A stretch of DNA of 64,000 bases, from contig OZ246398.1 in the NCBI GenBank assembly GCA_965230995.1, forward strand, positions 144,227 to 208,226, in the 5' to 3' direction. The notes under the pieces were generated by a model. The model was not told the origin of the DNA and made no database searches. It was given only the letters and a program-made list of their open reading frames with translations. This DNA is from an uncultured Candidatus Saccharibacteria bacterium (lineage in GTDB: Bacteria > Patescibacteriota > Minisyncoccia > Phycocordibacterales > G965230995). Shown piece by piece: positions 19,490 to 63,472 of this stretch. How positions within the stretch are numbered: the stretch's first letter is position 1; each line of letters opens with the position of its first letter. Both the position numbers and the translations under genes were made by a program.

Positions 19490-19723
19490 ATGGAAAGCGA
19501 AAAATCATATGGACCAATAATAGGACTAGTCATAATCATCCTCGTTATTGCTCTTGGAAGTGTATATTTCCTACAAAAAAGAGAAGAAGCTCCTACTCCA
19601 AAAATACAGGACACAGAGCAGGTATCTGAAAATGACGACATAGAAACCCTAGAATCAGAAATTGACGCCACTGTTACCGAAGATCTAGATGCAGAAATAG
19701 ACGGACTTGAAGCGCAGTTATAG
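19490..19723 (+). CDS. small single-TM protein with acidic tail
   Basis: 77 aa; followed directly by a GC hairpin terminator. Confidence 0.4.
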   Translation: MESEKSYGPIIGLVIIILVIALGSVYFLQKREEAPTPKIQDTEQVSENDDIETLESEIDATVTEDLDAEIDGLEAQL

Positions 19724-19730
19724 AAGATAG

Positions 19731-19761
19731 AAAGCGGGCGCCCGCTGGGCGCCCGTTTTTC
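19731..19761. terminator. rho-independent terminator
   Basis: aaagcgggcgcccgctgggcgcccgtttttc. Confidence 0.55.
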
Positions 19762-19813
19762 TTTTCTTGCCATTTTCTCTGTTTTTGTTAGTCTTCGTGT
19801 ATAAAATAAAACT

Positions 19814-20950
19814 ATGACAAACAAAGACACAACAAAGAAAGACGACAAAAAGCATTATCAGAACATCAAGGTTACAAAGCTTCCAAAATCAAAAGTAGAG
19901 ATAGAGGGAGAAATCAGCTCTGAAAAAATGGATTCGGTTTGGAAAAAGGCTGTAGCCAAAGTGAGCGAAAATATAGAATTGCCAGGTTTCCGAAAAGGAA
20001 AAGCACCAGAAAATGTCCTAATCCAAAAAGTCGGAGAAATGCCGATTCTAGAAGAAGCAGGAGAAATTGCTCTCTCCGAAGTTTATGCTGACATATTGAT
20101 TGATCACAGTGTCGATGCAATCGGACGACCACAAGTCTCTATTACAAAACTTGCAAAAGGAAATCCTCTTGGTTTCAAAATTATTACTTCAATCGTACCT
20201 ACAGTAACTCTCAAGGACTACAAAAAAGAAGTCGAAAAAATTGCAAAAGAAAAAGATGATGTAAATGCAACCGACGAGGACGTAAACAAAGTCATAGACA
20301 GTATTCAAAACAACAGAAAGCAAATCGAAAGACAAAAATTAGAAAAAGAAGCAAAGGAAAAAGGAGATAGTGCAGAAATAAAAGACGAGGATATTACCGT
20401 TCCGGCTTTTGATGATGACTTTGTAAAAACACTTGGCGACTTTAAAGACGTTGCTGATTTCAGAGAAAAAATTCTTGCAAACATAAAAAAAGAAAAAGAA
20501 CGCGAAGCAAAAGATAAAAAGCGATCAAAAATAATAGACGTTCTCGTCGAAAAAACAGAAGTCGATATGCCAGATATTCTAATTGAAAGTGAAATGGAAA
20601 AAATGATGGCGCAATTTTCTGACGACCTTGCTAGAGCGAGAATTACAATGGAAGATTATCTAAAACAAATCGGCAAGACAATTGAAGACATCAAAAAGGA
20701 ATGGCTTCCAAGCGCAGAGAAAAGAGTCAAAGTCCAGCTCGCACTAAACAAAGTAGCCGAAGAAGAAAAAATAAAACCAACAGAAGAAGACATCAAAAAA
20801 GAAGTCGCTCATCTAACATCACATTACAAAGATGCAGATCCAATAAGGGCAAGAATGTATATTGAATCTGTGCTCGTAAATGAAATGGTATTGCGAAATC
20901 TTGCCGGAGAATCAATGGAAGATATCAAAACTCACGATCACGATCATTAA
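19814..20950 (+). CDS. tig: trigger factor
   Basis: 378 aa; ribosome-binding signature GFRKGKAP; PPIase-like middle region. Confidence 0.85.
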   Translation: MTNKDTTKKDDKKHYQNIKVTKLPKSKVEIEGEISSEKMDSVWKKAVAKVSENIELPGFRKGKAPENVLIQKVGEMPILEEAGEIALSEVYADILIDHSVDAIGRPQVSITKLAKGNPLGFKIITSIVPTVTLKDYKKEVEKIAKEKDDVNATDEDVNKVIDSIQNNRKQIERQKLEKEAKEKGDSAEIKDEDITVPAFDDDFVKTLGDFKDVADFREKILANIKKEKEREAKDKKRSKIIDVLVEKTEVDMPDILIESEMEKMMAQFSDDLARARITMEDYLKQIGKTIEDIKKEWLPSAEKRVKVQLALNKVAEEEKIKPTEEDIKKEVAHLTSHYKDADPIRARMYIESVLVNEMVLRNLAGESMEDIKTHDHDH

Positions 20951-29225: not shown

Positions 29226-29600
29226 CTAGGAATTAATAACGGGAATCATTTCTACTTTTGCTTTTTTCTGAACTGATGAGTATTTTACTGTCACAAGAAA
29301 TACTCCCCACTCCCCTTTTATGTTTCTTTGAGAAATATAAATATCTATTATCCTATAGAACTTTCGTAATTTATCACTATGCAAATTTTCTTCCGGTCTG
29401 AAACCAAAATCAGAATCAATATTTGTCCGAGAAACACTTTTTACCTCACAAAAATAGATTTTGCCATTTTTTTCAGCAACGATGTCTATTTCACCTAAAA
29501 AATGTCTAAAATTTCTTTCGATAATCTTAAAGCTATTCTTCTCTAAATATCTTCCAGCAATTTCCTCCCCTATTTTTCCAATTTCATTATGTCTGGCCAT
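29226..29600 (-). CDS. YraN-family (UPF0102) endonuclease
   Basis: 124 aa; GEIDIVA ... FCEVK motif typical of YraN. Confidence 0.75.
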   Translation of the reverse strand: MARHNEIGKIGEEIAGRYLEKNSFKIIERNFRHFLGEIDIVAEKNGKIYFCEVKSVSRTNIDSDFGFRPEENLHSDKLRKFYRIIDIYISQRNIKGEWGVFLVTVKYSSVQKKAKVEMIPVINS

Positions 29601-29661
29601 TTTTACTAATTATACGCCAAAAAGACACTTTTTGTCCTTGTTATACACACTATCCCCATAG

Positions 29662-29702
29662 TTATCCACAGTTTGGGGACAAAAGTCCTATATTATCCAC
29701 AC
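29662..29702 (+). promoter_or_regulatory. pair of perfect DnaA boxes (TTATCCACA x2, same orientation, 32 bp apart) in the yraN upstream region
   Basis: exact 9-mers at 29662-29670 and 29694-29702; a 2-mismatch variant tgttatacaca lies about 20 nt upstream. Confidence 0.45.
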
Positions 29703-29892
29703 CTTTGTCCAGTCTTTAATATAAAAAACAATACCTGTAACATCTTTTATGAGCCAAAATTAATATTGCCCGTTAGGTAAAGTAGTCTCTGGTGTTTATA
29801 AAAAAGTCTTTTGGCTTTTAATGCTCTACCTACAGCAAGTCTGAAAACAAAGAACCTCGATACACATTTGTGTCGAGGTTCTTTGTTTCTTG

Positions 29893-30655: not shown

Positions 30656-31669
30656 TCATCTCTCCATTTTCTTTAGCAGTTCCAAATATAGGTCTTCTAC
30701 TATTTTTTTCTGCTCCTCCCCTGATTTTGCATAGTGATCTAATCCAGGAGAAGAATTAATCTCCAACACATAATATTCATTGGGTTTTTCTGTAATATCT
30801 CCATTTACCATAATATCTACACCGCAAATTCTGAGACCCATCCCCTTTGTAATATTAATCGCTATATCCTTGAAATCTTGGTTGATTTCACGTGTAACAT
30901 CGACGCTCTCCCCTCCTGTCGATAGATTTGCATTGTCCAAAAGAAAGACTTTCTCACCAGATCGCAAAACATCTGACATTTTTAAACCAAGTCTATTTAA
31001 TTTGTTTGATATTCTAATATCATTCAAATCAATAATATTTCCTTTGCCCTGCTTTTTAAAAAACTCCTTTTTATTCTTTACTAGGCTTTCTATATCAAAA
31101 ACACCATCTCCGATAACAGAAAAAGGTTCTCTGGTATAGGCGGAAATGACTTTGTCGTCGAGAACAACAATTCTGCAATCCACGCCAGAAACAACGCTTT
31201 GGACTAATATTATCCTGTCATATTGAAATATTTCCTCCCCTGCTTTGTAGAATTCGTCTTTATTCGAAACAAAAAACACACCCTTGCCCTGACTTCCACT
31301 ATTTGGCTTCACAATTACTGGAAATCCTATTGATTCTGCATATTTATAGGCATTATCTAATTTTCTATCATACACCCCTATTATTTCCGACCATTCGTCC
31401 GAGAAAAAAGTCTTGCTATTTGGGACAACAGGAAAACCAAGCTGTTTTAAAAAGAAATTTGTGTAATCTTTGTCGACAGCAATTTTTACCGAGCCCGCGT
31501 GGTTTAGATCAAAAGAATTATATTTAAAATATGAAAAAAGACCGCTTTTCCATTTTATTCTTCCGCAAACTCCCCACTCTGGTTCAATCAAAACCTCTGC
31601 CCCTATTTTGGAAGCAAGTTTTTTAATCAGATCTCGCGAAGTTAGTGGATAGTATTCTTTTTCGTTCAT
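30656..31669 (-). CDS. ATP-grasp domain protein (RimK/cyanophycin-synthetase-like ligase)
   Basis: ATP-grasp blocks FPVIVKPNSGSQGKGV and EINSSPGL; start ambiguous (MNEKEY chosen; the longer N-terminus is encoded by a palindromic motif). Confidence 0.6.
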   Translation of the reverse strand: MNEKEYYPLTSRDLIKKLASKIGAEVLIEPEWGVCGRIKWKSGLFSYFKYNSFDLNHAGSVKIAVDKDYTNFFLKQLGFPVVPNSKTFFSDEWSEIIGVYDRKLDNAYKYAESIGFPVIVKPNSGSQGKGVFFVSNKDEFYKAGEEIFQYDRIILVQSVVSGVDCRIVVLDDKVISAYTREPFSVIGDGVFDIESLVKNKKEFFKKQGKGNIIDLNDIRISNKLNRLGLKMSDVLRSGEKVFLLDNANLSTGGESVDVTREINQDFKDIAINITKGMGLRICGVDIMVNGDITEKPNEYYVLEINSSPGLDHYAKSGEEQKKIVEDLYLELLKKMER

Positions 31670-31742
31670 TTGCGTATTATACACATAATCAAAGAAAATG
31701 TTTCGCGTGTAACATTCCATAAAATGATATATAATTATCAAA

Positions 31743-33230
31743 ATGAAAAAAGCCTCAATTGACCCAAAAACCTTTAATATTCCGGAGGTTGTTTCGCGTG
31801 TAACATCTGTTTTACAAGATAATGGCTATGAAGCCTATATTGTCGGCGGTTGTGTTCGTGACCTTTTCCTTGGAAAAACGCCTAAAGATTGGGATATAAC
31901 AACAAATGCCACTCCTGAACAGATTATTTCCCTATATCCAGAAACATTTTACGAAAATTCTTTTGGAACGGTTGGTGTCGTGACAGAATCAGAAGAGCCT
32001 ACACTAAAGGTTATCGAAATAACCACATATCGAATAGAATCGGGCTACAGCGACAAAAGAAGACCTGACAATGTATCTTTTAGTGTAAACATACACGACG
32101 ACCTAATGAGACGCGATTTTACGATAAACGCAATGGCTTTTGATCCGAAGTCCGGGACTCTCATTGATTCCTTTGGCGGAATTGAAGATTTACACAAAAA
32201 ACAAATAAAAACAGTTGGAAATCCCGAGGATAGGTTCAACGAAGATGGTCTACGGATATTGCGTGCGATACGACTTAGCTCTGAACTTGGTTTTGATATC
32301 GAAGAAAAAACAGAAAAAGCCATAAAGGACAATTCTTCCCTACTCAATCATATTTCTGCAGAAAGAATCCGCGATGAATTCATAAAAGTCATTTCTTCAC
32401 AGAACGCTCTGCAAGGTATTGTAAACAGTCACAGATTAGGTGTTCTGTCCTTTATAATCCCAGAATTAGAAGAAGGAATTGGTGTGGAACAAACTGCTAC
32501 ACACGCTTATGATGTATGGACACACCTATTAAAAAGCCTAGAACATTCAATAAACAAAGAATATCCGTTACACGTGAAACTGGCTGCCTTGTTACACGAT
32601 ATAGGAAAGCCACGTTCAAGGAGATTTTCAACAGGTAAAGAAAAATATACCTTCTACGGTCACGAAGTTTCAGGGGCTAAAATAGCCAAAAGCATACTAG
32701 AAAGGCTTAAATTTCCAAAAGAAACGGTAGAAAAAGTAACAAAATTGGTTAGATGGCATATGTTTTTCTCGGATACCGAACAAATTACATTGTCTGCAGT
32801 AAGAAGAATGATAGTAAATGTAGGAAGTGATCTAGTCTGGGATTTAATGAACGTTAGAATATGTGACAGAATTGGAACAGGAAGACCAAAGGAAAACCCT
32901 TACAGATTAAGAAAATACAAAGCAATGGTTGAAGAAGCTCTACGAGACCCTATTTCTGTCCAGATGTTAAATATCGATGGTAAAAGGATTATGGATGTTA
33001 CACGTGAAAACCCTGGACCAAAGATTGGCTATATTTTAAATGCCCTACTTGAAGAGGTTTTGGACAATCCAACCCTAAATACAGCCGAATATCTAGAAAA
33101 AAGAACACTGGAGCTGTCAAAATTAGATGAAAAAGAGCTTAGAAAGATTTCAGATAAAGGAAAAGAAAAGAAAGACGAAGAAGAAAAGAAAGAACTAAAA
33201 AAGATTCACGCGAAACATAAAGTAGATTAG
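31743..33230 (+). CDS. cca: CCA-adding tRNA nucleotidyltransferase with C-terminal HD domain
   Basis: GGCVRDLFLGKTPKDWDITT Pol-beta NTase motif; HD domain LLHDIGK. Confidence 0.85.
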   Translation: MKKASIDPKTFNIPEVVSRVTSVLQDNGYEAYIVGGCVRDLFLGKTPKDWDITTNATPEQIISLYPETFYENSFGTVGVVTESEEPTLKVIEITTYRIESGYSDKRRPDNVSFSVNIHDDLMRRDFTINAMAFDPKSGTLIDSFGGIEDLHKKQIKTVGNPEDRFNEDGLRILRAIRLSSELGFDIEEKTEKAIKDNSSLLNHISAERIRDEFIKVISSQNALQGIVNSHRLGVLSFIIPELEEGIGVEQTATHAYDVWTHLLKSLEHSINKEYPLHVKLAALLHDIGKPRSRRFSTGKEKYTFYGHEVSGAKIAKSILERLKFPKETVEKVTKLVRWHMFFSDTEQITLSAVRRMIVNVGSDLVWDLMNVRICDRIGTGRPKENPYRLRKYKAMVEEALRDPISVQMLNIDGKRIMDVTRENPGPKIGYILNALLEEVLDNPTLNTAEYLEKRTLELSKLDEKELRKISDKGKEKKDEEEKKELKKIHAKHKVD

Positions 33231-33261
33231 TTACACGCGAAACATAGATAATACTACAAAA

Positions 33262-33292
33262 CACAAAAACGGCTTTATAAAGCCGTTTTTGT
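33262..33292. terminator. bidirectional terminator
   Basis: aaaaacggcttt ataa agccgtttttgtg. Confidence 0.55.
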
Positions 33293-33355
33293 GTTTTTGT
33301 TCCACGTGTAACACTGTATTTTGTTTCTTGTGAAACATTTTATTGTATAAAAAGG

Positions 33356-33555
33356 TAGGGGCGGAGAGTAAACGGTACTCTACTACGCCCCTTTCTGTGG
33401 TTGGGTGGTACGAGGTGGCATTACTGCCGGTACCCACCATTTCGAAGCCTGGAAAGACGACAGCCAATCGCCCGCCGGATCGCTTCGAGGTTAGGTTATT
33501 TGACACTGGTTGTCAAAATTAACCTTCGCAAGGAACTAAGTCCACAAACACAGAG
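33356..33555 (+). ncRNA. GC-rich structured RNA-like segment of unknown identity (possible upstream part of an ssrA precursor)
   Basis: TATAAA -10-like box at 33346; nested GC helices (aggggcg...cgcccct; ttcgaagc...gcttcga); contains ...ggtacccACCA at 33430-33440; no credible ORF. Confidence 0.3.
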
Positions 33556-33840
33556 GGGGTATGATTCAGTTCGATACGGACAACGAGTGGAGAGTCTGTG
33601 TAGTGGACGAGAATAAAATATCATAATGTATCATTTATGTCAACAAAAAACCGCGCCTCACAAATTGGTACGCTGGTCGGACGAAAACTAGCGAAACAAT
33701 GCGATTTGACGCGGTGTATATCATTCTGCTGTTGCTGTGGAGTATATGCAACAGACAGAAAGACAGCGTATGTAAGAACCTGGCCAGGCCCTCTATGCTA
33801 AGGAACTAATTCTTTGAACATTCAGCCGGTTTTTGTCTTT
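33556..33840 (+). ncRNA. ssrA: tmRNA-like RNA (ssrA candidate): canonical 5' tRNA-like domain, 3' boundary and tag unresolved
   Basis: GGGGGTATGATTCAGTTCGATACGGAC matches the tmRNA 5' consensus GGGGnnGATTCnGGATTCGAnnGG; downstream GTCGGACGAAAACTAGCG resembles the resume region; no TTCGA T-loop or CCA acceptor found downstream. Confidence 0.4.
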
Positions 33841-33945
33841 TATCTTCTCGACTACCACCAACTGATCTGTTGTCCATTATAGCAACATATAAAGGACACG
33901 CAAATAAAAGTTGTGGATAAGTGTCCTTTAAGGTGTAAAGGACAA

Positions 33946-34716
33946 TTATAAATTAATATCGAGCGAAATAGGGCAGTGGTCGGATCCTGTTATATCTGTG
34001 TGTATTTCAGCGCTTTTTACTTTTGGAATAATCTCTTTGTTTATAAAAAAATAGTCAATTCTCCAGCCAACATTTCTCTCTCTTGCACTGGTTTTTGTAT
34101 CCCAATATGAATAAACATTTTTCTTTTCTGTATTTAAAAATCTCCAAATATCTACATAACCATTTGAAATGACCTCGTCGATCCATGCCCTCTCGATAGG
34201 GAGAAAACCTGTACTTTCCATATTTTCTTTTGGTCTTGCAAGGTCAATTTCTGTATGTGCAGTATTTACATCACCACAAAATATGACGTTTTTGCCTTGT
34301 TTCTTGAAAAAATTCATTTTTTCAAGAAATGCCTTATAAAATCTAAGTTTGTAATCTAACCTGACAGGACCACCGCCCCCGTTTGGAAAATAGGCGTTAA
34401 CTACAATGTATTTTCCAAAATCGACAATTAGAGTACGGCCTTCCTTATCAAATTCTTCAATTCCGAGACCTTCATATACCTTTTCTGGCTTGATTTTTGT
34501 ATAGATAGCGACACCACTGTAGCCTTTTTTCTCTTTAGAATGGTCAAAATATGCAAAAAAACCGAGGGGATTACGCACTTCTTCGGGCATTTGATCTGGA
34601 TGTGCCTTTGTTTCTTGTAAACAAAAAATGTCTGGCGAATCGCTTATTAGCCAGTTCCAGGCCCCTTTTTTGTAATTAGCTCTCACTCCGTTTACATTCC
34701 AAGAAACAATTCTCAT
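33946..34716 (-). CDS. xth: exodeoxyribonuclease III
   Basis: 256 aa; MRIVSWNVNG start and EEP-family catalytic blocks. Confidence 0.9.
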   Translation of the reverse strand: MRIVSWNVNGVRANYKKGAWNWLISDSPDIFCLQETKAHPDQMPEEVRNPLGFFAYFDHSKEKKGYSGVAIYTKIKPEKVYEGLGIEEFDKEGRTLIVDFGKYIVVNAYFPNGGGGPVRLDYKLRFYKAFLEKMNFFKKQGKNVIFCGDVNTAHTEIDLARPKENMESTGFLPIERAWIDEVISNGYVDIWRFLNTEKKNVYSYWDTKTSARERNVGWRIDYFFINKEIIPKVKSAEIHTDITGSDHCPISLDINL

Positions 34717-34774
34717 ATTATTATCATAGCATAAATGGTGCGGGGGCCGGATTTGTTAGATCTCGGCCCCCAAA

Positions 34775-35035
34775 TCACCTGCAAAGAGCCAGCGCCCGAG
34801 TCACGAGCGAATCATCTTGCTTGCCGAGAGGTCGAGGCAAACTCAAGAGTTCCTGCCTTCGGGCCAAAATCGTTTCTCTGGCCCTGCTCTGAAAACCCTT
34901 GAAATATCGTCCGCCCCTGTTCTCGGCGTACAAAAGGAGTCTTTCTAGCTTGGAGAGCAAATCACCCTCTTCGGCAAGAATCGCATCGATTGGGTTATCC
35001 ATATGACCTCCTTGTGTGGAAGTGAAAGAACCCAC
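34775..35035 (-). CDS. hypothetical small protein (75-86 aa) in a ~60% GC islet
   Basis: strong AAGGAGGT site just upstream of the internal Met at 35002; GC-rich hairpin gggggccg...cggccccc downstream; start ambiguous. Confidence 0.35.
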   Translation of the reverse strand: MGSFTSTQGGHMDNPIDAILAEEGDLLSKLERLLLYAENRGGRYFKGFQSRARETILARRQELLSLPRPLGKQDDSLVTRALALCR

Positions 35036-35094
35036 TTACATTTATTGTACCATATATATTTGAAACATCTTCTTTCTGGTGTACTATTCATATT

Positions 35095-36088: not shown

Positions 36089-36985
36089 TTATCTTTTGTT
36101 GTGAAAGTTTTTGTGAACATCACGAAGATGTTTATCTGTAACGTGAGTATATATCTGTGTAGTGCCAATATTGGCATGGCCAAGCAGAGCTTGGACGGAA
36201 CGGAGATCGGCCCCGTTCGATAAAAGGTCGGTTGCAAAGGAGTGTCTGATTACATGTGGCGTCACTTTTTTTGTAATTCCTGCTTTGATTGCGTAATGTT
36301 TGATTATTCTCTGTACTGCTCTTGACACCAAACCAGAAACATCTTTGTCTTTTTTAAAGATCTGAACAAACAGAGGTTCTGCCATATCTTTTCTTACTTT
36401 TAAATATTTTTCAACTGCATCTTTTGCTTCGTCAGACACAAAGACTACTCGGACTTTTTCTCCTTTTCCACGTACTGATAATTCTTTTGCTTTTAGATTT
36501 ACATCACGTGAGAGAGAACACAATTCAGAGACTCGAAGGCCGGTTGAAAATAGCATCTCTAAAATTGCCCTGTCGCGAAGCGATCTTTCGCTATCACCTG
36601 TTGGAGCATTAAGAAGTCTGATTAATTCATCGTGGGTTATCAAATCAAGACTTCGCTCGGCAACTTTTGCGAGTTCTATCTTGTCTGGAGGTAGGGAAGT
36701 CACACCTCTTTTCATTGCATATTTAAGAAGCGATCTCAGAGCGATTAGATAATAATTCTGTGTTTTTCTCTTTAGAGTATCGTTGCCTTTGCCACTAGAC
36801 TGTCTATTTAACCACAATCTGAATTCTCTGATTGTTTCATCGGAAATATCCTTCGGATCTTTGATTTTTGTATGTTCGATAAAGCGAGAAATATACCTAT
36901 CGTAGTTTTCTACAGTTTTTAGACTGCGTCCTTTTTCAATTTCTACATATTCTAGAAACTGCCTCTTTAGGGTTTGCATATCCAT
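36089..36985 (-). CDS. xerC: tyrosine recombinase XerC/XerD family
   Basis: 298 aa; phage-integrase fold with R...HxxR...Y (HVIRHSFAT, GHANIGTTQIYTH). Confidence 0.8.
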   Translation of the reverse strand: MDMQTLKRQFLEYVEIEKGRSLKTVENYDRYISRFIEHTKIKDPKDISDETIREFRLWLNRQSSGKGNDTLKRKTQNYYLIALRSLLKYAMKRGVTSLPPDKIELAKVAERSLDLITHDELIRLLNAPTGDSERSLRDRAILEMLFSTGLRVSELCSLSRDVNLKAKELSVRGKGEKVRVVFVSDEAKDAVEKYLKVRKDMAEPLFVQIFKKDKDVSGLVSRAVQRIIKHYAIKAGITKKVTPHVIRHSFATDLLSNGADLRSVQALLGHANIGTTQIYTHVTDKHLRDVHKNFHNKR

Positions 36986-62125: not shown

Positions 62126-63472
62126 ATGGACTACAAACAACTTTGGGATGGAGTGTTGGTGGAAGTAGAGATGACGGTCTCAAAGGCAAGTTTTAATACT
62201 TGGTTCAAAGACACTTTTATTTCAGGTTGGAGCGACGGGGCAATAATCCTCAGTGTTCCTAATACATTCGTAAAAGAATGGCTCTCAAACAAATACCACA
62301 ACGTAATTCTCAAATCTCTACGAAAAATAAACCCTGAAATCCGTGCTCTCGAATACACAATATCCAAAGACGGAGCAAAGAAAGCCCCAGACAAGCCCCA
62401 AAACAAAATGGGGGACACAGGTATTTTGCCACTTGTTGAACAACACATAAACAAAGAAGATAATCTAAACCCAAAATACACTTTCGATACATTTGTCGTC
62501 GGACCTTTCAACGAATTAGCCCACGCAGCATCTCAAGCTGTCATAAATAGGCCAGGTCTTGCATACAACCCATTGTTTATCTATGGAAACACAGGACACG
62601 GAAAGACTCATCTAATCCAAGCAATCGGAAATCAAATAAAAAAACTATATCCTCAAAAATTAGTCTACTATGTTACCTCTGAAAAATTTGCTCAGGACTT
62701 GATTAATTCCATAACAAGCCAAAAAGTAAATGCCTTCAAGGAAAAGTATCGAAGATATGATGTCATCATAATGGACGACATTCAGTTTCTTTCAAACAAA
62801 GAAAAAACCCAAGAGGAATTGTTCCATATTTTTAATTCTCTGTATGAAAACAACAAACAAATAGTATTTTCTTCTGATACACACCCTCATTACATACCAA
62901 ATCTCGAGGACAGACTAAAATCACGCTTTGCTGCTGGTATGACAGTGGATATTCCAGCGCCCGATCACGAATCCCGAACCGCGATTTTGAACGCAAAAGC
63001 AAGACAACTAGGGCTTGATGTAACACCAGAGATCATAAATTTCCTCGCCACAACTATTCCGGGTAACATTAGGGAACTAGAAGGTGTCTTAAACACAGTT
63101 CTATGCCAAGTTCAGCTAAAAAAGAGACCTCTTTCTCTAAACGAAATTAGAGATCTTATAAAAAATGCTTCTAAACCAAAAAAACTTATCTCTACAAAAG
63201 AAGTAATAAAGATTGTTGCTGATTTTTATGGAATAGAAGAATCAAGCATATATGAAAAAACCCGCAGAAAGGACATTATAAGGCCAAGACAAGTCTTGAT
63301 GTATATTTTGCGTGAAGATTTTAATATCTCTTTCCCTTCAATCGGACAAAAGATTGGGGGCAGGGATCACACAACCGTAATTCACTCTTGTGAAAAGATA
63401 AAAGGGGACATAAAAGAAGATAACGCCTTAAACCAAGAGATAAACCAGCTCCGAGCACTGCTTGGAAGCTAG
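62126..63472 (+). CDS. dnaA: chromosomal replication initiator DnaA
   Basis: 448 aa; AAA+ Walker A GNTGHGKTHL; C-terminal DnaA-box-binding helix-turn-helix. Confidence 0.9.
   Translation: MDYKQLWDGVLVEVEMTVSKASFNTWFKDTFISGWSDGAIILSVPNTFVKEWLSNKYHNVILKSLRKINPEIRALEYTISKDGAKKAPDKPQNKMGDTGILPLVEQHINKEDNLNPKYTFDTFVVGPFNELAHAASQAVINRPGLAYNPLFIYGNTGHGKTHLIQAIGNQIKKLYPQKLVYYVTSEKFAQDLINSITSQKVNAFKEKYRRYDVIIMDDIQFLSNKEKTQEELFHIFNSLYENNKQIVFSSDTHPHYIPNLEDRLKSRFAAGMTVDIPAPDHESRTAILNAKARQLGLDVTPEIINFLATTIPGNIRELEGVLNTVLCQVQLKKRPLSLNEIRDLIKNASKPKKLISTKEVIKIVADFYGIEESSIYEKTRRKDIIRPRQVLMYILREDFNISFPSIGQKIGGRDHTTVIHSCEKIKGDIKEDNALNQEINQLRALLGS

Follow-up and report, generated by a model that had tools for sequence, protein, structure and literature searches.

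Base-pairing small RNAs (sRNAs) such as RsaE/RoxS of the Firmicutes carry several C-rich unpaired motifs, and promoters controlled by DnaA boxes are found at dnaA, nrdAB and mioC of Escherichia coli and at sda of Bacillus subtilis. To our knowledge, almost no regulatory RNAs have been characterised in the tiny genomes of the Patescibacteria, or candidate phyla radiation (CPR). Here, the 715-nt gap between the stop codon of cca (33230) and that of xth (33946-34716, minus strand) was analysed in a 64,000-nt stretch of contig OZ246398.1, termed the window, whose positions are used throughout. A first-pass annotation had proposed for this gap either a divergent or permuted gene for transfer-messenger RNA (tmRNA; ssrA) or two distinct non-coding RNAs (ncRNAs). 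The gap probably contains two independent, convergent non-coding RNA genes, RNA-P on the plus strand and RNA-M on the minus strand, neither of which is a tmRNA. The number of RNAs in the second proposal is thereby retained, while the predicted boundary moves from 33555 to near 33640, the downstream RNA changes to the minus strand and the tmRNA-like 27-mer at the centre of the first proposal falls within the upstream RNA.

The cca gene (31743-33230, plus strand) encodes a CCA-adding enzyme of 495 amino acids (aa) whose best database relatives belong to metagenome-assembled genomes (MAGs) of Paceibacterota, Zambryskibacteria and Taylorbacteria; the source genome is of the Patescibacteria/CPR, Paceibacteria (Parcubacteria) type. 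In surroundings of about 36% G+C, the gap reaches 55-57% G+C at 33350-33500 and about 49% at 33650-33800, and its four small open reading frames (ORFs) gave no match in Pfam. Literature searches returned no description of the RNA-M family and no relevant description of a CPR tmRNA or ncRNA.

The RNA-M gene and its family in Paceibacteria

The features of RNA-M are listed in Table 1. Its strand is read as minus because the G·U pairs, the promoter and the terminal U-run all fit that strand only. The sigma-70-type promoter is near consensus, and a perfectly conserved DnaA box is located about 30 nt upstream of the -10 element. The same promoter is present in exact register in 5/5 species, namely the window and a close group consisting of L002, L003 (= L004), L086 and L087, contigs with cca homologues 69-73% identical. 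In all five, AAAGGACA is followed by C or G and TTATCCACA, a gap of about 8 nt, TTGCNN, a spacer of 16-18 nt, TATAAT (TATACT in L003) and GGACAACAGA. Helices S1, S3, S4, S6 and S7 also form in all five species from different sequences: the S1 stem keeps 8-9 bp and has a different sequence in every species, S3 closes a U-GGCC-A tetraloop in each of them, and the S4 stems of the close relatives are perfect, 5-7 bp long and without sequence in common, closing loops of 11-12 nt such as UUUUCUCCU. The S4 loop of the window, AUAUACUCCACA, resembles an anti-Shine-Dalgarno sequence. A covariance model (CM R2) built from the four close relatives only, with the window left out, matched the window at 33772-33875 on the minus strand over its full length (42.5 bits, E=1e-6). 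No ATG or ORF common to the relatives was seen by eye.

Beyond the close group, most of 85 Paceibacteria loci carry a perfect TTATCCACA 270-670 nt past the cca stop codon, on the strand opposite to cca, and in about ten further loci it is found on the cca strand, no more than about 250 nt from the stop. It is followed by a -35 region of the TGTCCTTTACA type and a (TG)nTAYAAT -10 element. The family RNA ranges in size from 230 to 390 nt. Its 5' part starts with CAGA and contains a hairpin with an apex that often reads GUCC-GAUAAACCCC-GGAC, an invariant GUUCUUU linker and a palindromic hairpin; in the 3' part, a multi-helix domain is followed by a stretch resembling CUUCUCCCC and by an AACCGC...GCGGUUUU terminator, which often abuts the cca stop codon. 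Single-stranded blocks comprise GUUCUUU, CUGGUU, AUAUCCUCAAC and CUUCUCCCC. A 118-position model generated from 21 family sequences (CM R1) detects the RNA at E<0.01 in 34 loci. In the helices of this model, 86.7% of cells are paired, compared with 41-57% when the partners are slid, and 78 cells are double changes, a number reached by 0/500 shuffles.

The window was linked to this family with an nhmmer profile of 61 distant loci that included the promoter and left out both the window and its four close relatives. The profile matched from 33920 to 33775 (E=7e-9), covering the promoter and the 5' half of RNA-M and aligning the DnaA box, the -10 element, CAGAUCAG, GAUAAA, GUUCCUUA and the S3 hairpin, while the other TTATCCACA sites of the window gave E>=0.3. 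The combination that defines the family promoter (TTATCCACA, -35 region and (TG)nTAYAAT beside the 3' end of cca) is present at 33920-33876, and the elements of the RNA follow in family order: CAGA, S1 with its GAUAAA apex, a GUUCYUU linker, the palindromic S3, a hairpin with a C/U-rich loop, the ACCGC...GCGGU terminator and the U-run. It is concluded from these comparisons that the RNA-M of the window is a divergent member, of reduced length, in an uncatalogued family of Paceibacteria RNAs beside cca; nine family loci searched against Rfam at E<=0.5 gave no match. Two model results weigh against this assignment. The end-to-end alignment of CM R1 to the RNA-M of the window reaches only 9.9 bits, and CM R2 matches no distant member among the loci searched and thus fails to connect the close group with the wide family. 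The link from the window to the family therefore rests on the profile, synteny and motif order. The strict motif CTGGCCAG...TCGTCCG was found in the close group only, and T[TC]TCGTCC matched elsewhere mostly in cca coding sequence and in an apparent tRNA gene of opposite orientation.

RNA-M shares with RsaE/RoxS a stand-alone gene with a strong predicted promoter, an intrinsic terminator and hairpins with conserved C/U-rich loops (CUCC, CGUCC). It differs in being 2-3 times longer (230-390 nt), in its architecture and in its restriction to Paceibacteria, and no sequence or model similarity connects the two, Rfam being silent. With the DnaA-box promoters of E. coli and B. subtilis, that of RNA-M has in common a perfect consensus TTATCCACA just upstream of the -35 element, kept across many species; unlike them, it serves a structured ncRNA rather than a protein gene, and binding of DnaA is predicted only. 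Wide conservation, synteny and a probably high expression recall 6S RNA, RNase P RNA and the RNA of the signal recognition particle (SRP). However, the family consensus fold of local hairpins and one multi-helix domain is not the rod with central bubble of 6S RNA, and RNA-M has neither the P4/CR-I motif of RNase P nor the GNAR/AGCA domain IV of SRP. For either RNA of the gap, identity as RNase P, SRP, 6S or a riboswitch was rejected as no Rfam match was obtained, permissive thresholds included; a test for their signatures likewise found no model match, no P4 GGAAAGUCC, no domain IV with GNAR plus AGCA and no rod. By-eye likenesses of GGGUGGUAC to a T-box motif and of CCUGGAAAG to SRP failed a structural-context check.

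Judging from its promoter and loops, RNA-M may be a trans-acting base-pairing regulatory RNA: binding of DnaA would tune its transcription, and its exposed C/U-rich loops (CUCC, CGUCC) could pair with purine-rich, Shine-Dalgarno-like targets. A cis-regulatory role is argued against, since lineages differ in the orientation of RNA-M with respect to cca and in the neighbour found downstream of it. A more far-reaching interpretation is offered tentatively, as a possibility that we consider less probable than its negation. Here, RNA-M would represent a new structured RNA class across Paceibacteria, always encoded beside cca in a probably origin-proximal region rich in parS sites and DnaA boxes, and its promoter would carry an invariant DnaA box. 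The level of this RNA would be coupled to DnaA and hence to replication initiation, and it might be a lineage-specific housekeeping RNA. RNA-P would be another structured RNA, an orphan that was inserted at the same place.

Several peculiarities were observed around the family. In almost all cases, the S3 hairpin is perfectly palindromic, the 4-nt loop included (GGCC, GCGC, UGCA, ACGU or CGCG), as in columns 118-135 of alignment A4 (e.g. L018:4634-4747, L034 and L078) and at 33774-33793 of the window. This palindromy goes beyond the need of an RNA hairpin and hints at loop-loop dimerisation or a symmetric binding site at the DNA level. In five loci (L022, L028, L031, L070 and L076), extra elements of about 130-330 nt with terminal inverted repeats (e.g. 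...CAAATTTGG ... CCAAATT...) separate the RNA-M terminator from the cca stop codon and resemble miniature inverted-repeat elements. Additionally, gene-free stretches of 1.2-1.5 kb (L003:2273-3473 and L085:1-1524) contain tRNA genes, duplicated tRNA 3' halves and odd structured inserts, and may be attachment-site remnants or intervening sequences.

RNA-P and the tmRNA question

As the first-pass annotation had recognised, the segment upstream of RNA-M is GC-rich, structured and non-coding: no protein-family match was obtained, and the fold of 33357-33640 on the plus strand has a z-score of -2.3 against shuffles. The 5' end of RNA-P is placed from its -10 box and its 3' end between at least 33599 and the RNA-M terminator (about 33600-33640). 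The sole RNA-P homologue found is in L001 (ENA ERZ27247358), a locus with a cca 87% identical to that of the window, on a contig that ends inside RNA-P. BLAST detects almost no primary similarity between the two RNA-P bodies, while helices H1-H4 are co-linear in both, with similar landmark spacing and G·U pairs that fit the plus strand; the L001 counterpart folds with a z-score of -3.2. H2 of L001 is formed by GGCGCAUGA/UCAUGCGUU, includes two G·U pairs and lacks a CCA. A 22-nt motif inside H3, GGAAAGACGA-N7-UCGCC (33451-33472), is identical in L001, and a 7-bp hairpin (GUGAUUC-GGUG-GGAUCGC) occupies the position of the 27-mer. A six-frame comparison of 33340-33660 with L001 revealed no conserved peptide. 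Diverged sequence with kept helices and no conserved frame is the pattern of a plus-strand structured RNA, and from this comparison we infer that RNA-P is a lineage-restricted RNA of this kind. The likeness of GGAAAGACGA to the CR-I motif of RNase P was dismissed, as it sits in the apex of an RNA-P hairpin and not in a P4 context.

The strand of the GC-rich segment can also be argued the other way. Transcription from a minus-strand TTGACA-17-TATTTT site (33643-33615) to the bidirectional cca terminator (33297-33258) would agree with the fact that this site is the only promoter-like one reported by the scan, that a strong hairpin with a U-run is present downstream on the minus strand and that the fold energies of both strands are similar. 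On that strand, however, A·C mismatches would replace the G·U pairs of H2, H3 and the hairpin of L001, and the segment holds fewer promoter-like sites than shuffled sequence (1 vs 3.1), which leaves minus-strand transcription improbable.

Searches for further homologues of RNA-P were unproductive. A scan of a metagenome collection with GGAAAGACGANNGCCANTCGCC gave 4 matches, each of them in coding DNA of high G+C, the 38 matches of a looser pattern in viral contigs were chance by context, no match was obtained in phage and plasmid collections, and a search with xth found no relative closer than 70% identity. Several points weigh against the reading of the gap as two RNA genes. Only one, truncated homologue of RNA-P was found, and two sequences give weak covariation statistics; the conserved blocks upstream of RNA-P are parS-like sites and thus no proof of a promoter; and no recognisable intrinsic terminator was detected for RNA-P. 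The promoters, ends and strands of both RNAs, together with the targets of RNA-M and its control by DnaA, are proposals made from sequence alone. The presence of RNA-P in two species only, the chance matches of the scans, the parS-like upstream blocks and the missing terminator are also compatible with a GC-rich DNA remnant or a centromere- or origin-proximal element acting at the DNA level, acquired for instance between parS sites, whose likeness to L001 reflects recent ancestry. A second GC-rich patch nearby (34775-35005), which proved to be a small ORF, points the same way. Against such a DNA element stand stems that are almost wholly different in the two species yet pair in both, at comparable distances and with G·U pairs that fit one strand, a 22-nt motif kept identical amid diverged surroundings, and the lack of a conserved reading frame; we regard it as unlikely, although less so than transcription of the segment from the minus strand. 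A structured RNA-P on the plus strand is the preferred reading.

The tmRNA proposal was prompted by the 27-mer GGGGGTATGATTCAGTTCGATACGGAC, which presents GGGG, GAUUC and UUCGA in roughly the order of a tmRNA 5' end, and by an upstream string ending in ACCA, GGTACCCACCA. Both strings are real, although they had been placed one base off (the 27-mer is at 33555-33581 and GGTACCCACCA at 33429-33439; the TATAAA box is at 33346-33351). A match to the tmRNA 5' consensus "almost base for base" was not borne out. The window contains 3 occurrences of the core GGGG-N8-11-TTCGA where 0.83 would be expected, which is at chance level, as one occurrence is a tRNA and the other two are the 27-mer site counted twice. 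ARAGORN, with permuted genes included, reported four tRNAs and no tmRNA in the window, and no tmRNA among 84 related loci. Rfam 15 at gathering thresholds returned the same four tRNAs only. Permissive searches (E<=10), which covered tmRNA (RF00023), its permuted models (RF01849-RF01851), RNase P, SRP and 6S RNA, gave only weak matches on the cca terminator hairpin within 33150-34050 (901 nt) and none at all in 33352-33645 (294 nt) or 33556-33880 (325 nt). A tmRNA of standard or permuted form was rejected on these results, and the tests that had been suggested with the proposal (the tmRNA, RNase P and SRP models and ARAGORN) all ended without a match in the candidate region.

The structural expectations lead to the same result. 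In common with a tmRNA, the locus has one 27-nt stretch and a GC-rich structured non-coding region in an AT-rich genome; it lacks a G3·U acceptor stem, a T-arm, pseudoknots, a tag frame and a model match, the motif is not kept in L001, and what follows downstream is part of an opposite-strand gene. As had been stated, there is no T-arm downstream: none with a GUUCRA-type T-loop precedes 33853, and the sole TTCGA is the one inside the 27-mer. A complementary acceptor strand had also been reported missing, whereas a near-complement, TACCACCA, is present at 33853-33860 and forms 6/7 pairs with A opposite G3; it exists because it is part of helix S1 of the opposite-strand RNA-M. No tag frame with a resume codon was found, ARAGORN reports no tag, and the open frames in 33637-33809 are without Shine-Dalgarno or resume context and overlap RNA-M helices of species-variable sequence. 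The region 33705-33722, described as resembling the sequence upstream of the tag, is the 5' strand of terminator stem S6 of RNA-M read on the wrong strand. Finally, the aligned stretch of L001 reads GGAGGUCGUGAUUCGGUGGGAUCGC; without the GGGG and UUCGA letters there, the near-invariant tmRNA 5' letters (G1-G3, UUCGA) are not conserved.

A one-piece divergent tmRNA on the plus strand would extend over 306 nt from 33555 to about 33860, with the acceptor GGGGGUA/UACCACC, an encoded discriminator A and a CCA added by the neighbouring CCA-adding enzyme. Apart from the 27-mer and the six pairs with TACCACCA, GACGAAAACUA, which we take to be shared with the E. coli tag region, speaks in its favour. 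Besides the features lacking above and the silence of ARAGORN and all Rfam tmRNA models, it is contradicted by the minus-strand gene at 33644-33875, which has a conserved promoter and a terminator of its own and helices that include G·U pairs, and by the flanks of RNA-M in L002, L003, L086 and L087, which by eye contain neither an RNA-P-like segment nor the 27-mer; it is effectively refuted, and its residual probability is negligible. A permuted two-piece tmRNA would have an acceptor piece ending in ...GGUACCCACCA (33439) and a coding piece from 33555. As in the ssrA genes of alpha-proteobacteria and cyanobacteria, a 3'-like piece would precede a 5'-like one, and an ACCA end is present. The strand GUACCCACC, however, pairs locally with 33404-33411 as H2, so that the supposed tmRNA 3' piece is the 3' strand of a local helix, whose L001 counterpart UCAUGCGUU is without CCA. 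At 33429-33439 there is no T-arm or T-loop and no acceptor strand with CCA that pairs with a downstream piece, no more than about 85 nt would be left for the coding piece ahead of the RNA-M terminator, and neither ARAGORN nor the permuted Rfam models give a match, so that this version is just as remote. The proposal of a divergent or permuted ssrA was accordingly abandoned: the tmRNA likeness of the 27-mer is coincidental, and the stretch is assigned to the 3' part of RNA-P.

Two complementarities between the RNAs were observed. AAGGAACUAA of RNA-P (33530-33539, plus strand) is the perfect complement of the conserved RNA-M linker UUAGUUCCUU (33809-33800, minus strand), and GGACGAGAA (33604-33612) is complementary to the S7 loop UUUUCGUCC. 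An RNA-P/RNA-M duplex was rejected, its global energy being no better than that of shuffled sequence, and the complementary stretches may be due to chance.

Table 1. Features of the gap between cca and xth, with window coordinates
Feature	Position	Strand	Description
cca terminator	33258..33297		perfect 20+20 nt inverted repeat, 100% complementary, just past cca stop; flanked by A-/T-runs
parS-like palindrome	33298..33313		TGTTCCACGTGTAACA; conserved in L001; one of 7 sites
Putative RNA-P -10 element	33346..33351	+	TATAAA (TAATAA in L001); presumed promoter role
RNA-P	33357..33640	+	GC-rich structured ncRNA candidate; 55% G+C in 36% G+C genome; fold, helices in L001
RNA-P helix H1	33358..33391	+	GGGGCG/CGCCCC around hairpin AGAGUA/UACUCU; in L001 GGGCUCGCAA/UUGCGAGCCC around its own hairpin
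RNA-P helix H2	33404..33438	+	GGUGGUAC / GUA-C-CCACC, inner hairpin GGCA-UUAC-UGCC; 3' strand is ...GGTACCCACCA
RNA-P helix H3	33442..33488	+	UCGAAGC/GCUUCGA plus CUGG/CCGG around 22-nt motif
RNA-P helix H4	33493..33525	+	loop CUGGU; in L001 CUAU-CGCG/CGCG-U-AUAG, loop UGGUG
tmRNA-like 27-mer	33555..33581	+	after H4, in RNA-P 3' part; probable local hairpin
Last predicted RNA-P helix	33576..33599	+	hairpin ACGGAC-N12-GUCUGU
RNA-M	33644..33875	-	232-nt non-coding RNA gene; covariance models, profile, covarying helices, fold z = -3.1
RNA-M 3' domain	33644..33715	-	terminator stem S6 (33715-33708 / 33659-33650), hairpin S7 inside, U-run to 33644
RNA-M hairpin S7	33693-33671	-	7-nt loop UUCGUCC (33685-33679); YUCGUCC across the five species
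RNA-M helix S4	33729..33754	-	CUGUUGC/GCAACAG; 12-nt C/U-rich loop AUAUACUCCACA
RNA-M helix S3	33774..33793	-	8-bp stem closing tetraloop GGCC (U-GGCC-A)
RNA-M helix S1	33822..33865	-	UCAGUUGGU/ACCGGCUGA, 9 bp including 2 G·U; inner GUC/GAC; GAUAAA-containing apex
RNA-M promoter	33876..33903	-	-35 TTGCGT (33903-33898), 16-nt spacer, extended -10 TGcTATAAT (-10 at 33881-33876)
RNA-M upstream boxes	33912..33929	-	AAAGGACA (33929-33922), then perfect DnaA box TTATCCACA (33920-33912)

Replication-related sites, neighbouring features and significance

The palindrome GTTACACGTGTAAC occurs in 7 copies (<=2 mismatches) at 30885-33312, around and inside cca, compared with 0.08 expected, and matches the consensus of the ParB-binding site parS, which we take to be TGTTNCACGTGAAACA. 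Perfect copies are also found in or near cca in L001, L018, L021, L023, L032, L034 and L082. The conservation upstream of RNA-P may thus represent ParB binding rather than a promoter, and the cluster of these predicted sites suggests a centromere-like, origin-proximal region. DnaA boxes are similarly enriched, with 6 copies of TTATCCACA in the window against 0.64 expected. Two perfect boxes and a TATCCCCA variant, interleaved with GGACA/TGTCC motifs, are clustered at 29640-29710, adjoining a UPF0102/NERD gene (29226-29600, minus strand) and tRNA genes, an arrangement shared with L003 and L085. This cluster may be oriC, although dnaA itself is located 32 kb away (62126-63472), and the cca/xth locus is probably part of an origin-proximal region rich in parS sites and DnaA boxes.

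Further observations concern the surroundings of the locus. The GC-rich gap at 34717-35094 was considered as another RNA and rejected: its patch of about 55% G+C between xth and a VanY gene (34775-35005, minus strand) is a 76-aa ORF with an AAGGAGG ribosome-binding site, without Pfam match, followed by a GC-rich hairpin (likely a terminator) and of a composition that looks foreign for this genome. A gene for a XerC/D-type tyrosine recombinase (36089-36985, minus strand) is located 2 kb from the locus, and no link to either RNA was found. The best sub-threshold Rfam match of the window, RmaA at 19716-19832 on the plus strand (42.4 bits against a gathering threshold of 57, E=5.7e-4), is probably due to chance or driven by a terminator.

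The analysis removes a false lead, as there is no aberrant or permuted ssrA in the cca/xth gap of this CPR genome, and puts two concrete ncRNA candidates without Rfam match in its place. The cluster of parS sites and that of DnaA boxes help to place the replication origin in a poorly studied lineage. With dozens of species-level genomes, strong covariation and a promoter with a perfectly conserved DnaA box, the RNA-M family offers a testable entry to the coupling of gene regulation and replication and is a ready candidate for a new Rfam entry. Both RNAs are ordinary kinds of feature, but RNA-M gives access to a CPR RNA family that is uncatalogued and broadly conserved and whose promoter signature is unusual.

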